From an uncultured Bacilli bacterium (GTDB lineage Bacteria; Bacillota_I; Bacilli_A; RF39; UBA660): a stretch of 64,000 nucleotides of DNA. The translations under genes were made by a program, and so were the position numbers. The notes under the pieces were generated by a model. The model saw only the letters and a program-made list of their open reading frames with translations, made no database searches and had not been told where the DNA came from. Below are positions 27,598-32,183 of the stretch, one piece after another (the first letter of the stretch is position 1; each line of letters starts with the position of its first letter). The DNA is taken from positions 32-64,031 of the forward strand of contig CAKOXI010000004.1 of assembly GCA_934130045.1 (NCBI GenBank), written 5' to 3'.

Positions 27598-29416
27598 TTT
27601 TGATTTTTTTAAAATCATATTAAGTGGAATTATATTTGTTATTTCATTATTTATTGATACTGAAACAACAAAATTTATTCTATTAATAATAAGTTATATA
27701 ATTGTATCTTATGAAATGTATATTAGTGCATTCAAAAATATTTTAAAGGGAGAAATATTTGATGAAAATTTACTTATGATAGTAGCAACTATAGGAGCAT
27801 TTTTTATAGGTGAATATGAAGAAGCTTTAATGGTAATGTTATTATTTAATTTAGGTGAATATTTGTCAGATAAAGCAGTTGATAATTCTAGTGAATCTAT
27901 CTTAAAATTAATGGATTTAAGAAGCGATAGGATTAATTTAAAATTAAATGATAAAATAGAAAACGTTGATATAAAAGATGTTAAATTGGGTGATTTTTTT
28001 ATTGTAAAACCAGGTGAAAAAATTGGTTTAGATGGTGTTGTTATAGAAGGAATGGGTAGTGTTGATACTTCAAGTTTAACAGGAGAATCAAAACCTGTTT
28101 ATGTAGAAGTAGGTAATACTGTATTAAGTGGTAGTACAAATTTAGATTCAATTTTAGTTATAAAAGCAACATCAACATTTGAAACAAGTACGGCTACTAA
28201 AATATTAGAATTAATAAAAAATTCTGAGGATAAAAAAACAGAAACAGAAAAATTTATTACAAGATTTTGTAAAGTTTATACACCTGTTATTGTAATATCG
28301 GCTATTTTATTAACTGTTATACCAGTTATATTAGGTGGAAATTTTAATGAATGGTTATATAGATCATTAGTATTTTTAGTTACATCTTGTCCTTGTGCTT
28401 TAGTAATTTCTGTTCCATTAGTATTTTTTTCAGGAATTGGTAGAGCAAGTCGTGAAGGAATTATAGTTAAAGGAAGTAGTGAATTAGAAAATTTATCAAA
28501 AATTAAAACTATTGTTTTTGATAAAACTGGTACAATAACTAAGGGAAATTTTGAGATTCAAGAAATCGTTTCTAAAAATATAACAAATGAAGAATTATTG
28601 GAAATTGCGGCTTATTCTGAATATTATTCACTTCATCCTGTATCAAAAGTGATATTAGAAAAATATGGTAAAGAAATTGATAAAAGTATAATTAGTGATT
28701 TTAAAGAAATAAGTGGAAATGGAATATCTTTAAAAATAAATAATGATGAAATATTAGTTGGTAATTATAATTTATTTAAAGAAAACAAAATAAATGTAGA
28801 TAATATTAATTCTATTGGAACTATTATATATATTGCTAAAAATCATGAATATTTAGGATATATATTAATTGCTGATGAAATAAAAAATGATGCTTATAAT
28901 TTAGTTAAATCTTTAAAATATAATGGTATTAAAAGAGTTGTTATGTTATCTGGTGATAATAAAAATATTGTAAAAAATGTAAGCGAAAAAGTTGGAATTA
29001 GCGAATACTATGCTGAAATGCTTCCAATAGATAAAGTTAATAAGGTTGAGAGCTTAAAAAAGGATGGATTTACCGCTTTTGTAGGTGATGGAATAAATGA
29101 TGCACCTGTTATGAAAATATCTGACTTAGGTATTTCAATGGGAATAACAGGTAGTGATGCTGCAATAGAAGCCTCTAATATTGTTTTAATGACAGATAAT
29201 TTGGATAAAATAACAGAAGCTATCAAAATATCTAAAAAAACAAAACGTATAGTAACATTTAATATAGTATTTGCACTTTTGGTAAAATTTTTATGTTTAT
29301 TATTAGGTGTTTTAGGAATATCAAAAATTTGGTTTGCAGTAGTTGCTGATGTTGGTGTTACATTATTGCTTGTTTTAAATTCATTAAGATTAATTATAAT
29401 GAAAAAGGTTCATTAA
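27584..29416 (+). CDS. heavy-metal translocating P1B-type ATPase (Cd/Zn/Co class), no N-terminal HMA domain
   Basis: CPC motif (SCPCALVIS), DKTGTIT, TGES and GDGINDAP. 610 aa starting directly with TM helices. Confidence 0.9.
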   Translation: MKKFDFDFFKIILSGIIFVISLFIDTETTKFILLIISYIIVSYEMYISAFKNILKGEIFDENLLMIVATIGAFFIGEYEEALMVMLLFNLGEYLSDKAVDNSSESILKLMDLRSDRINLKLNDKIENVDIKDVKLGDFFIVKPGEKIGLDGVVIEGMGSVDTSSLTGESKPVYVEVGNTVLSGSTNLDSILVIKATSTFETSTATKILELIKNSEDKKTETEKFITRFCKVYTPVIVISAILLTVIPVILGGNFNEWLYRSLVFLVTSCPCALVISVPLVFFSGIGRASREGIIVKGSSELENLSKIKTIVFDKTGTITKGNFEIQEIVSKNITNEELLEIAAYSEYYSLHPVSKVILEKYGKEIDKSIISDFKEISGNGISLKINNDEILVGNYNLFKENKINVDNINSIGTIIYIAKNHEYLGYILIADEIKNDAYNLVKSLKYNGIKRVVMLSGDNKNIVKNVSEKVGISEYYAEMLPIDKVNKVESLKKDGFTAFVGDGINDAPVMKISDLGISMGITGSDAAIEASNIVLMTDNLDKITEAIKISKKTKRIVTFNIVFALLVKFLCLLLGVLGISKIWFAVVADVGVTLLLVLNSLRLIIMKKVH

Positions 29417-29430
29417 TTTGAATCTTTTTT
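29406..29430 (+). repeat. left copy of 25-nt perfect direct repeat AGGTTCATTAATTTGAATCTTTTTT
   Basis: Covers the last codons and stop of the ATPase gene plus a GGTTCA-ttaatt-TGAATC hairpin and T-run. Identical to 32159-32183. Confidence 0.9.
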
Positions 29431-29446
29431 TATTTAAAAAAAGGAA

Positions 29447-30406
29447 ATGGGAATCCTTTATAGAAAAATATATATAGGGGTGATAAAAATTAAAATTATA
29501 GAAAAAAATCTAAATAAGGGAGAGATAATACCATTAACATTTGATCCAATGTTTACTAGTATTTTTAATAATGAAGAAAATATATGCATATTAGAAGATT
29601 TTATATCAATATATTTTGATATTCCAATTAATGAGGTAATTGGTAACTTAAAAATATTAAGTAGAAAATTAAACAAAAATAATAAAATAGAAGCAAGTAA
29701 AGAAGTTGATTTATTATTAACTTTGAATGGGGTAAAAATAAATATAGAATTATCTAATAGATGTACTATAGGAGTTAGGGAAAGAAACTTGGTATATATT
29801 TGTGGACAACATTCAAAACAATTAAAAGTAGGAGATAAAAATTATCAAAATATAAAAGATTCAATACAAATATGTATTAATAATTTTAATTGTAATGAAA
29901 CTTATGCGATAGAAAGTTATTACTTAATGAACAAACGAGGAAGAATATATAGTAAAAAATTAAGAATAGATTTAATAGACCTTGAAAAAATAAAAAATAT
30001 ATGTTATCATATAAGTAACAAAAAATATAATTTACTTAAAATATTTACGACAAATAAAAAAGTAGAATTAGAAAAATATTTGGAAGGTGGTATTATGAGG
30101 AAAGAATCAAAAGAGAAATTAATAAAAAATGTAGAAAGATATAGTAGTGATGAAGATGTATTTACTTTATATACTGAATTATCAAAAAGTGAGTTAGAAA
30201 AAAATACTATGATTGCAGAAGCAAATGATGAAGGCTTTAAAAATGGTCTTGTAGTTGGTGAAAAACGTGGCGAGGAGCGTGGAGTTGCAAATGAAAAAAT
30301 AAATGTAGCAAAATCAATGTATGCTGAAAATATAGATATAAATATTATATCAAGAGTTACAAATTTAGAAATTAATAAATTACAAGGAATGTTTAATATA
30401 AAGTAA
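29447..30406 (+). CDS. Rpn family recombination-promoting nuclease / putative PD-(D/E)XK transposase
   Basis: N-terminal PLTFDPMFTSIFNNEEN, core EVDLLLTLNGVKINIELSN, and C-terminal EGFKNGLVVGEKRGEERG...AKSMYAENIDINIISRVTNLEINKL are typical of the family. The exact start is uncertain. Confidence 0.75.
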   Translation: MGILYRKIYIGVIKIKIIEKNLNKGEIIPLTFDPMFTSIFNNEENICILEDFISIYFDIPINEVIGNLKILSRKLNKNNKIEASKEVDLLLTLNGVKINIELSNRCTIGVRERNLVYICGQHSKQLKVGDKNYQNIKDSIQICINNFNCNETYAIESYYLMNKRGRIYSKKLRIDLIDLEKIKNICYHISNKKYNLLKIFTTNKKVELEKYLEGGIMRKESKEKLIKNVERYSSDEDVFTLYTELSKSELEKNTMIAEANDEGFKNGLVVGEKRGEERGVANEKINVAKSMYAENIDINIISRVTNLEINKLQGMFNIK

Positions 30407-30419
30407 AACATTCCTTTTT
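30385..30419 (+). terminator. rho-independent terminator
   Basis: AGGAATGTTT...AAACATTCCT hairpin overlapping the stop codon, followed by TTTT. Confidence 0.65.
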
Positions 30420-30507
30420 AGATATTATTTATGTATTATTATTATTAAAATTATATTGAATTTTATAAATATATTATATATAATATATTCCCAAGTGAGA
30501 TGATGTT

Positions 30508-32160
30508 ATGACACAATTACAATTTATTGATATATTAAAAAGAAATAGTATTGATGATAAAAAAATAGATTATATTTTATCAAAAAATATTAAGAGAATT
30601 TTGGGAAGAAATATAGATGAATTAGAAAAGATAATAAAAATATTAAATAATGAAAATCTAGAAATAAAAAATTGTCTATCAGTTTTAGCTCAGGGAAAAG
30701 CCGAGGAAATAGAAAAAATAATAAAAATACTAAAGAATGAAAATATAGAGGTAAGAAATTGTCCCACAATTTTAGCACATGGAAAAGCGGAAGAAATAGA
30801 GAAAATAATAAAATTATTAAAGAATGAAAATATAGAAATAAGTAAATGTCCCACAATTTTAGCATATGGCAAAGCGGAAGCATTAGAAAAAATAATAAAA
30901 TTATTAAAGAATGAAAATATAGATGTAAGAAATTGTCTCACAGTTTTAGCACTAGGTAAGGTAGAATAAATTGAAAAGATAATAAAAATACTAAAAGATG
31001 AAAATATAGAGGTAAGGAATTGTCTCTCAGTTTTAGCATATGGCAAAGCGGAAGAAATAGAGAAAATAATAAAAATATTAAAAAACGAAAACATAGAATT
31101 AAAAAATTGTTTTACAGTTTTAGCACGAGGTAAGGTAGAAGAAATAGAGAAAATAATAAAACTACTAAAGAAAGAAAATATAGAAGTAAGTAATTGTCCC
31201 ACAGTATTAGCCCAAGGAAAAGCAAAAGAAGTAGAAAAAATAATAGAAATATTAAAGAAAGAAAATATAGAAGTAAGTAATTGTTTGTCAATATTAGCAT
31301 TTGGAAAAGCAGAAGAAATAGAGAAAATAATAGAAATATTAAAAAAAGAAAATATAAATTTAATGAAAATAAAAGAATACAATATGAATTATATATTTTA
31401 TAATTTTAAATCTGATGATTTAAAAAATATTTTTTTTCATAGAAAAGATATATATAGTGATGATGAAATAAAATTATATATCAAGTTAAAACATTCAATA
31501 AATTGCTATTACGATAAACAAAAACTTGATGAAATTTGTAATAATTTGAATATCAACATTTCAAAAATAATAGGTGTTTTTAAAACAAAAAATATAGTTT
31601 TAAATGAGATTTTAACAAAAAAAATTTATAATGAAAATTTTAAATTATGGATTGGAAAATCATATAAGTGTACAAGTGAGCAACTTGAAAAAAACAAGGA
31701 AATGATTTTAAAATTATGTATTCGGGTTGCCAAAGCATTTGCGGTACGAAATAATTGTATGCATTTAGAAAAGGACCTTGAAGGTTTTGTTATGGATATT
31801 ATAATGGAAAAATGTGGAGATCTATTTTACTGTTTTGAAGGAAAAATTTTGGAAGAAGTATTATATTCATATTGTAAAAAATCATTATATAATTATTATG
31901 ATTTGAATACAAAAACCATTATTGATAATTTATATGGATCATATGATAGTAATACCTATGACGATGAACAATCGGAGATTTTACAAGATATTGACTTAGA
32001 AATTGATGAAAGAGAAAAGATTCAGTATATGAGCTATTTATTAGAAAATGGTGTCATTGATTTTGAAAATAAAATTAAAAGTAAATATAATATGAATGAT
32101 AATGATTATACTGATTTTATAGGGAAAGTTAAAACAAAAATATTAAGTAATAAAAATTAG
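30508..32160 (+). pseudogene. tandem 29-aa helical-repeat protein gene (mTERF-like repeats plus C-terminal domain) interrupted by one in-frame TAA
   Basis: ORFs 30508-30969 and 31285-32160 are in the same frame, and the 315 nt between them contain no further stop. The TAA at 30967-30969 sits where seven of the other eight repeats have GAA. Confidence 0.65.
30583..31365 (+). repeat. nine tandem 87-bp (29-codon) coding repeats
   Basis: Repeat units start at 30583, 30670, 30757, 30844, 30931, 31018, 31105, 31192 and 31279. Consensus: NC(L/P/F)(S/T)(V/I)LAxGKAEEIEKIIK(I/L)LKNENIEVx. Confidence 0.9.
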
Positions 32161-32183
32161 GTTCATTAATTTGAATCTTTTTT
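32159..32183 (+). repeat. right copy of 25-nt perfect direct repeat
   Basis: AGGTTCATTAATTTGAATCTTTTTT overlaps the TAG stop of the repeat-protein gene. Confidence 0.9.

Follow-up and report, generated by a model that had tools for sequence, protein, structure and literature searches.

Att-like direct repeats frame a strain-variable islet with a nested insertion/deletion of a single rpn gene in an uncultured Bacilli bacterium

Among cis-mobilizable elements (CIMEs), an example is provided by the ICESt1/ICESt3 family, which occupies the 3′ end of fda. CIMEs are decayed integrative elements that have lost their integrase and keep the attachment sites attL and attR (PMC5704250). A second point of reference is the rpn gene family, the products of which are nucleases that stimulate RecA-independent recombination, with D11, D63, E82, and Q84 as the PD-(D/E)XK-type catalytic residues of RpnA (PMC5350276). 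According to Zhong et al. 2023 (PMC10400941), rpn genes are gained and lost singly, with neither inverted repeats nor duplicated targets, and do not act as autonomous transposons; an intragenic RpnS and variation of a 4-residue repeat are also known within them (PMC10400941). Here we describe a locus to be set beside both, located in a stretch of 64,000 nucleotides (hereafter, the window) from an uncultured Bacilli bacterium (GenBank assembly GCA_934130045.1, contig CAKOXI010000004.1, positions 32 to 64,031 of the forward strand). A 2.75-kb block with an Rpn-family gene (Rpn1) and a gene for a tandem-repeat protein (RP) lies there between two copies of a direct repeat, behind a heavy-metal P-type ATPase gene. 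A preliminary description of this DNA had suggested that the repeat might mark the ends of an Rpn mobile unit, formed either as a long target-site duplication or as an att-like core. Comparison with conspecific strains shows the locus to be a strain-variable islet bounded by att-like direct repeats, within which the rpn gene is a nested, single-gene insertion/deletion.

Conspecific contigs were collected, from many independent samples, via ATPase and DUF4358 proteins the same or nearly the same as those of the window, and their flanks differ by 0–3.4%. Three haplotypes are present among them (Table 1): one with both the Rpn and RP genes, one with RP alone, and one without the block. The first also occurs in the GTDB representative metagenome-assembled genome (MAG), with the left (Rpn) junction on contig L017 and the right (RP) junction on contig L016. 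The second was recovered on five independent contigs from different samples, which carry the same repeats and no Rpn gene. In the third, the flank of DUF4358, MBOAT, and DHHW genes follows directly 3′ of a single repeat copy (...GTGAAGAAGGTTCATTAATTTGAATCTTTTTTTGTTTGAAAAAATAATTTTATATG...), and positions 9823–9859 of L018 match both junctions of the window. This is the empty site that the preliminary description had predicted, here with flanks ~97% identical. An origin of the empty contigs by assembly collapse can be excluded, because a repeat of 25–36 nt falls far below the k-mer length of 141 used for the k141 contigs and because the empty alleles have private single-nucleotide polymorphisms. 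Within this species, strains are genuinely polymorphic for insertion or deletion of the block. Samples with occupied alleles include ERZ28614465, ERZ27287197, and ERZ4561091.

Table 1. Features of the locus and haplotypes of the conspecific contigs. Positions refer to the window.
Feature	Position or contigs	Strand	Description
Heavy-metal P-type ATPase gene (target gene)	27584–29416	+	TIGR01525 550 bits, PF00122, PF00702
Direct repeat, left copy	29406–29430	+	25 nt, perfect; ATPase stop codon, hairpin GGTTCA/TGAATC, T-run
Rpn block (Rpn1)	29431–30419	+	Leader, gene, own terminator; starts right after host terminator T-run
Rpn-family open reading frame (Rpn1)	29447–30406	+	TIGR01784 56.9 bits versus cutoff 52.1, residues 32–313
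Candidate in-frame internal open reading frame (RpnS-like antitoxin)	30094–30406	+	GGAAGGTGG, Shine-Dalgarno-like, before ATG at 30094
Rpn terminator	30386–30419	+	GGAATGTTT...AAACATTCC and T-run; fold –11.2 kcal/mol
27-nt filler	30420–30446	+	Rpn terminator to resumed homology with Rpn-less haplotype; alignment with L009
RP promoter-like site	30456–30484	+	TTGAAT-17-TATAAT; consensus match only
RP gene	30508–32160	+	87-nt tandem repeat at 30615–31356, 8.5 copies
Direct repeat, right copy	32159–32194	+	First 25 nt (32159–32183) equal left copy; full 36 nt, ancestral duplication
DUF4358-like, MBOAT, and DHHW genes (right flank)	32322–35259	+	DUF4358 match sub-threshold
Rpn2 paralogue, 5′ part	63531–64000	+	87% protein identity to Rpn1 over full length
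Empty haplotype	L018 (162 kb), L019 (70 kb, and 5 similar), L020, L021		SmpB, ArsR, ATPase, one repeat copy, DUF4358, MBOAT
RP-only haplotype	L009, L024, L025, L026, L027		tRNA-Ser, ArsR, ATPase, repeat, ~210 bp, RP, repeat, DUF4358
Rpn + RP haplotype	Window, L001–L004		ATPase, repeat, Rpn, RP, repeat, DUF4358

The repeat had been described as a perfect 25-nt direct duplication, and for the window this description stands: AGGTTCATTAATTTGAATCTTTTTT occurs exactly twice, in the same orientation, with no third copy at up to three mismatches anywhere in the 64 kb. A match to the 25-mer arose in 0 of 100 dinucleotide-preserving shuffles, and it is the longest exact non-tandem direct repeat of the window, the next ones being 18–21 nt long and of low complexity, in keeping with the original judgment that the recurrence is not chance. 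The assignment of the two copies to gene boundaries was likewise borne out. The left copy holds the last codons of the ATPase gene (K V H) and its TAA, followed by the hairpin and T-run, and the right copy overlaps the TAG stop codon of RP, to which it supplies the AG together with the RP terminator. The predicted folds (left, –11.1 kcal/mol, z = –4.1; right, –7.8 kcal/mol, z = –2.4) place a stable hairpin directly before a U-run at a gene 3′ end, as would be expected of intrinsic terminators; a terminator consensus scanner, which demands at least three G–C pairs, gave no entry for either copy.

In other strains, however, the duplication is longer than 25 nt. The RP-only contigs (L009 and L024–L027) carry an intact repeat of 36 nt, AGGTTCATTAATTTGAATCTTTTTTTGTTGAAAAAA, covering the ATPase stop codon, the terminator hairpin, the T-run, and GTTGAAAAAA. 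The left copies of these five contigs match the right copies of L013 and L014 perfectly over all 36 nt, and the full right copy of the window differs from the left copy of L009 by one base. Beyond the 36 nt, local alignments of the neighboring sequence on either side were no better than shuffles, and the duplication is thus sharply bounded. Its 25-nt core is identical in both copies in every lineage, despite 1–3% divergence of the flanks. The orthologous ATPase gene of a sister species (L022; 73% identity) also ends with a stop codon within a hairpin, a T-run, and GAAAAAAA; this homologous 3′ end identifies the left copy as the native 3′ flank of the ATPase gene and the right copy as the duplicate. 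A promoter-like site at 32186–32213 (TTGAAA-16-TAAAAT, with an upstream TG) has its –35 hexamer within the last bases of the 36-nt repeat, such that the duplicated segment may carry a terminator and half of the promoter of the downstream operon.

The distribution of the repeat is restricted. A 22-nt core, GGTTCATTAATTTGAATCTTTT, was found in 1 of 185,579 GTDB species-representative genomes, a MAG of uncultured Bacilli (CAKOYE01) obtained from Hadza gut samples, where it occurs twice, at the same two junctions. No match was obtained among JGI metagenome contigs or IMG/VR viral contigs in an exact-match search, which would miss a diverged attP. Because the 22-mer is confined to this locus, the repeat is neither like repetitive extragenic palindromes (REP) nor a common terminator repeat.

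We are highly confident that the Rpn gene is a separate, later arrival, nested in the locus and without ends of its own. In a pairwise alignment with the RP-only contig L009, the window has ~1006 bp (29441–30446) where L009 has 144 bp, and the Rpn block is absent from L024–L027 as well. From position 29431 onwards the block has taken the place of the final 11 nt of the left 36-mer, so that in the window the repeat is perfect over just 25 nt. No target-site duplication flanks the block, and no terminal inverted repeats rise above the AT-rich background, which yields many chance pairs but none at the block ends. The genome holds at least two Rpn copies. The paralogue Rpn2 (311 residues; L023 7782–8717) begins directly after the T-run of the ThrS terminator, and its homology to Rpn1 starts at that T-run and continues through the terminator that the Rpn gene itself carries. 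In L005 and L023, Rpn2 is followed by SpoIIIAH and not by an RP gene, and no 25-mer lies beside it in the window or in L023. With an RP-only haplotype that lacks Rpn, and an Rpn block that is nested and devoid of ends, the proposal that the repeat marks the ends of an Rpn mobile unit is not sustained.

The two genes between the repeats had been named as an Rpn/PD-(D/E)XK nuclease and a tandem-repeat protein. Membership of Rpn1 in the Rpn family is supported at the level of TIGR01784, whereas no match to Pfam PF04754 or PF12784 (Rpn, PD-(D/E)XK) appeared even at E = 10. There was also no match among PDB sequences, and PADLOC returned weak, non-specific matches only, for both Rpn1 and RP. Possible catalytic residues, picked by eye rather than from an RpnA alignment, are D33 (TFDPMF), D78 (EVDLLL), and E91 (NIELS), with S93 at the position of Q84. 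No relatives of Rpn1 were found in viral contigs. Exactly two 4-residue indels, FKNG and GEER, set Rpn1 apart from Rpn2; both lie in the C-terminal region, in a stretch covered by the internal reading frame listed in Table 1. The putative internal ribosome-binding site and ATG, GGAAGGTGGTATTATG (30081–30096; GGAAGGTGG-TATT-ATG), are in frame in Rpn1 and kept in Rpn2, and this reading frame could give rise to a C-terminal protein of ~104 residues, similar to the RpnS antitoxins.

Some further observations concern the Rpn genes and their assembly. The assumed start codon of Rpn1, ATG at 29447, is not kept in the MAG copy, in which it reads ATA (window 29447–29497; L017 7360–7420), and a conserved, strong Shine-Dalgarno sequence (AGGGGTGA / AGGAGGTGA) precedes in-frame GTG, ATA, and ATT codons. 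The true start may accordingly lie downstream, possibly at a non-canonical codon. An 18-mer of the Rpn leader, AAAAAAGGAAATGGGAAT, recurs at 14054–14072, inside an unrelated open reading frame (peptide KKEMGIYLALG), and was rejected as a chance match. Metagenome contigs tend to break in or after Rpn genes (L003, L004, and L023). On L005 (3141–4076), the ATPase gene is followed by the 5′ half of Rpn1, the 3′ half of Rpn2, and then SpoIIIAH/GerE; as a real event this arrangement would represent a 34-kb deletion including ProS, and it was set aside, the likeliest explanation being that assembly joined two regions chimerically through the Rpn paralogues.

The direct repeat very probably belongs to RP rather than to Rpn1, since the RP-only haplotype keeps both copies in the absence of Rpn, and the repeat thus frames the RP gene. 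The RP protein consists of a short N-terminal segment, about nine helical units of 29 residues in variable number, and a C-terminal domain of ~260 residues; the –10 box of its promoter-like site and the 5′ untranslated region are common to the Rpn-less haplotypes. In the window, the gene is interrupted by an in-frame TAA at 30967–30969, one of three clustered changes to T (30953–30972) relative to the otherwise 100% identical L001 and L007. It is intact elsewhere, with 550 residues in L001 and L007, 521 in L009, and 840 in L024, and the copy in the window is either a recent pseudogene or a consensus error within the 87-nt tandem repeat. The number of 29-residue units varies strongly between conspecific strains (window 30615–31356; L009 4287–5108; L024 12075–13860), and the C-terminal domain diverges two to three times faster than the flanking genes, with about as many synonymous as non-synonymous codon changes. 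Judged from these sequence comparisons, the variable repeat number and fast evolution suggest an arms-race function.

A full HMMER scan placed the RP family in 119 representative clusters, and a further search yielded ~55 full-length relatives, while the closest RP homologues show 49–57% identity; no relatives were present in phage, plasmid, IMG/VR viral-contig, or JGI metagenome-contig collections. On a group of other uncultured-bacterium contigs (L028–L035, e.g. L028 5001–6758), apparently of one species or genus, the context of RP is fixed as a MiaB-like gene, a 98-residue gene, RP, and MutS, with RP in the slot of cotE in Bacillus subtilis. These homologues have 29–37% identity, lengths of 462–585 residues, a repeat period of 96 nt, and a variable number of units, and no direct repeats flank them (L028–L030). 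Such a fixed chromosomal context without repeats makes RP look unlike typical mobile cargo. An AlphaFold2 model of RP (pLDDT 86.8) is all-helical, comprising the repeats and a helical C-terminal domain. Compared with PDB structures, the model had no significant match, the best rows (E > 1) being TALE repeats and sigma factors, to be taken as hints only, and the RP profile gave only weak alphaRep/HEAT matches among PDB sequences. The RP family is uncharacterized, with HEAT/TALE-like repeats of 29–32 residues and a helical C-terminal domain; nothing in the model suggests a recombinase-like fold.

The RP cassette predates the sampled diversity of the species. The C-terminal domain of RP differs by 5.6–8.1% between lineages, compared to ≤3.4% in the flanks, and alleles more diverged than their surroundings indicate that the insert is old. 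With regard to the empty alleles, distances in the right flank are 1.1–1.4% to the occupied L016 and L024, whereas the occupied window is 2.8–3.1% from all of them, rendering the occupied alleles paraphyletic. Given this paraphyly and the deep divergence of RP, deletion is the simplest source of the empty alleles, which we regard, with moderate confidence, as precise deletions between the repeat copies.

These observations can be assembled into a history of old RP insertion, later Rpn replacement, and deletion in other lineages, to which as a whole we tentatively assign a probability of roughly 0.45. In the first and old step, a self-contained cassette, consisting of ~210 bp with its own promoter and the RP gene, would have inserted behind the ATPase terminator before the sampled lineages diverged. 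The 36 nt would have been duplicated in the process, and as a result of this duplication the ATPase and RP genes would both end in the same stop codon and terminator. Such an outcome would be obtained if a circular DNA that shared these 36 nt had entered the locus through one (Campbell-type) crossover, with the duplication as the att-type identity segment; either a site-specific recombinase acting in trans and since lost from the locus or short-homology recombination may have carried out this crossover. In the second step, later and in some lineages, the ~1-kb Rpn block would have replaced 144 bp directly 3′ of the T-run of the left repeat. This replacement was presumably recombinational, given the lack of a target duplication and of inverted repeats and the near-identical paralogue behind another terminator. 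In the third step, in other lineages, recombination between the repeat copies would have removed the cassette precisely, producing the empty allele with one copy. Under excision, the expected circle junction consists of the RP 3′ end, one 36-mer, and then GAACGTTTTTATG. We infer both the recombination mechanism and the direction of the third step. Of the two origins suggested in the preliminary description, an att-like core is our best guess, although the att-type crossover remains a tentative proposal; a target-site duplication made by Rpn as a transposase is very unlikely.

Several points weigh against this history. No integrase or other recombinase was found in or beside the block in any haplotype, and the RP model offers no recombinase-like fold that might substitute for one. 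Neither the viral collection nor other genomes contained an element carrying the same 22-mer as attP, and a second copy of the whole repeat-bounded unit was not encountered anywhere searched. The absence of RP homologues from phage and plasmid collections, and their fixed chromosomal context elsewhere without flanking repeats, are further difficulties. In addition, the empty alleles are comparatively divergent in their left flank (2.5–3.4%). The direction of deletion rests on distance matrices in a recombining population, such that the opposite direction is only somewhat less probable; the empty state could equally be an old allele maintained by recombination, and the Rpn-less haplotype could in principle be derived from the Rpn-bearing one.

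A rival reading is that the insertion was a one-off, non-site-specific event, in which illegitimate recombination, double-strand-break repair, or template switching copied the 36 nt with no att site involved, and the empty alleles may simply be ancestral and kept by homologous recombination. In favor of such an event, no recombinase, second copy of the unit, or other repeat-bearing locus was found, the cargo comes from a chromosomal gene family with a fixed context in a related contig group, the G+C content of the insert equals that of the flanks, and the empty alleles are relatively divergent on the left. However, a clean duplication of 36 nt by which the target gene regains its stop codon and terminator is a classic signature of att-type integration, and one of this length and tidiness would be unusual for the filler insertions of break repair. 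The deep divergence of RP and the paraphyly in the right flank also fit loss better than ancestral emptiness. On balance, we consider a one-off event somewhat unlikely, yet a serious rival to the att-type crossover.

Alternatively, the copies could have been made identical secondarily, if RP once had a terminator of its own that gene conversion later replaced with that of the ATPase gene, which lies 1.8 kb upstream, or if conversion ran in the opposite direction. The perfection of the 25-nt core in all lineages, set against the divergence of the flanks, fits homogenization or selection on the terminator, but conversion needs flanking homology, and there is none beyond the 36 nt. Moreover, the RP stop codon is built across the junction, and an empty allele with exactly one copy joined to both flanks is the expected product of duplication and deletion, which makes conversion improbable. 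Marginally less probable still is that the 36 nt are a true long target-site duplication, left by an undescribed, terminator-recognizing mechanism that inserts a cassette of promoter and gene behind a terminator. By analogy with the duplication of the repeat in CRISPR spacer integration, the cuts would be staggered by ~36 nt, and help might be provided in trans by the Rpn nucleases of the genome, the genes of which also lie exactly behind terminator T-runs.

We see very little prospect that the whole 2.75-kb block is an Rpn-driven mobile unit with the 25-mer as its long target-site duplication or att core. Although the repeat does bound the block, an empty site exists, the genome has at least two Rpn copies, and Rpn nucleases stimulate RecA-independent recombination (PMC5350276), five contigs carry the repeats around RP alone, where the repeat is 36 nt and free of the erosion caused by the Rpn block. 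The situation of Rpn2, behind ThrS and followed by SpoIIIAH (L005 and L023), with no RP and, in the window and L023, no adjacent 25-mer, is also at odds with such a unit, as are the lack of target duplication and inverted repeats at the Rpn block, the confinement of the 22-mer to this locus, and the lack of evidence for autonomous rpn transposition according to Zhong et al. (PMC10400941). Finally, coincidence, a faulty assembly, or membership in a dispersed family of terminator or REP-like repeats has a negligible claim, for while short AT-rich matches are common in a genome of 23% G+C, the shuffles and the short, low-complexity runners-up in the window speak against coincidence, and the repeat is seen only at two homologous junctions, in many independent assemblies.

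The sequences around the islet provide some additional context. The DUF4358–MBOAT–DHHW genes follow the second repeat copy as originally stated, albeit with the sub-threshold DUF4358 match. The comparison of G+C content that had been proposed for the insert revealed no difference, the block (~21%) being equal to its flanks, and a search of the entire window with Rfam gave no match. A further break in synteny lies immediately upstream of the ArsR promoter (window ~27183–27240; L024 9322–9703; L009 1534–1913), where SmpB is found in some strains, and PFL, PFL-activase, and tRNA-Ser(GCU) with its own promoter and terminator in others. The state upstream of ArsR is not linked to the Rpn/RP state, suggesting a separate rearrangement or recombination between lineages. 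Many ATPase-bearing metagenome contigs span just ~2.4 kb (2402–2468 bp), corresponding to ArsR and the ATPase gene, and assembly breaks on both sides of this pair are consistent with structural polymorphism on both flanks.

With these results, the hoped-for Rpn "transposon with ends" is removed at this locus. In its place, the three allelic states together offer a clean example from nature of what was reported for E. coli, where rpn genes come and go singly by recombination. The locus also illustrates that a 36-nt duplicated terminator can frame a single gene of non-mobile appearance and probably mediate its precise loss, which counsels caution in reading repeat-flanked blocks as mobile elements. 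The RP family, fast-evolving, variable in repeat number, and of unknown function, may be the more interesting lead.

In comparison to known systems, the islet resembles CIMEs as an integrase-less block between direct repeats of a few tens of bp, with repeats that duplicate the 3′ end of a target gene and leave that gene intact, and with conspecific strains that have a one-copy empty site (L018–L021). It differs from them in that a cognate integrase-bearing element using this site was not found anywhere searched, and neither conjugation nor phage genes are in evidence. At 1.8–2.7 kb, the block is also tiny; its one cargo gene is chromosomal in the related contig group, and the insert is old and compositionally native. 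Insertion sequences and transposons share with it a direct target duplication flanking the insert. Typical target-site duplications are ~2–15 bp, however, and here the duplication is 36 nt, with no transposase or terminal inverted repeats and a single-copy unit. Precise deletion mediated by direct repeats of ~25–36 bp is matched by the empty allele, in which exactly one copy connects the two flanks, and by the paraphyly of occupied relative to empty alleles in the right flank, but such deletion accounts for loss and not for the origin of the duplication.

For the nested gene, the appropriate comparison is with rpn (YhgA-like, TIGR01784/COG5464) genes, known as defence toxin genes that contain an intragenic antitoxin (PMC10400941; PMC5350276). 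Rpn1 departs from known members in being very divergent, with no Pfam match and, by eye, a serine as the equivalent of RpnA Q84. Both of its copies, in addition, lie directly behind the T-run of a host terminator and end in a terminator of their own; we know of no earlier description of rpn genes placed directly behind a terminator T-run. Shared features are single-gene presence or absence between conspecific strains, several paralogues per genome, insertion free of inverted repeats and target duplication, and, as judged from the sequence and as known for rpn genes (PMC10400941), 4-residue C-terminal indels and a putative in-frame internal ribosome-binding site and ATG.

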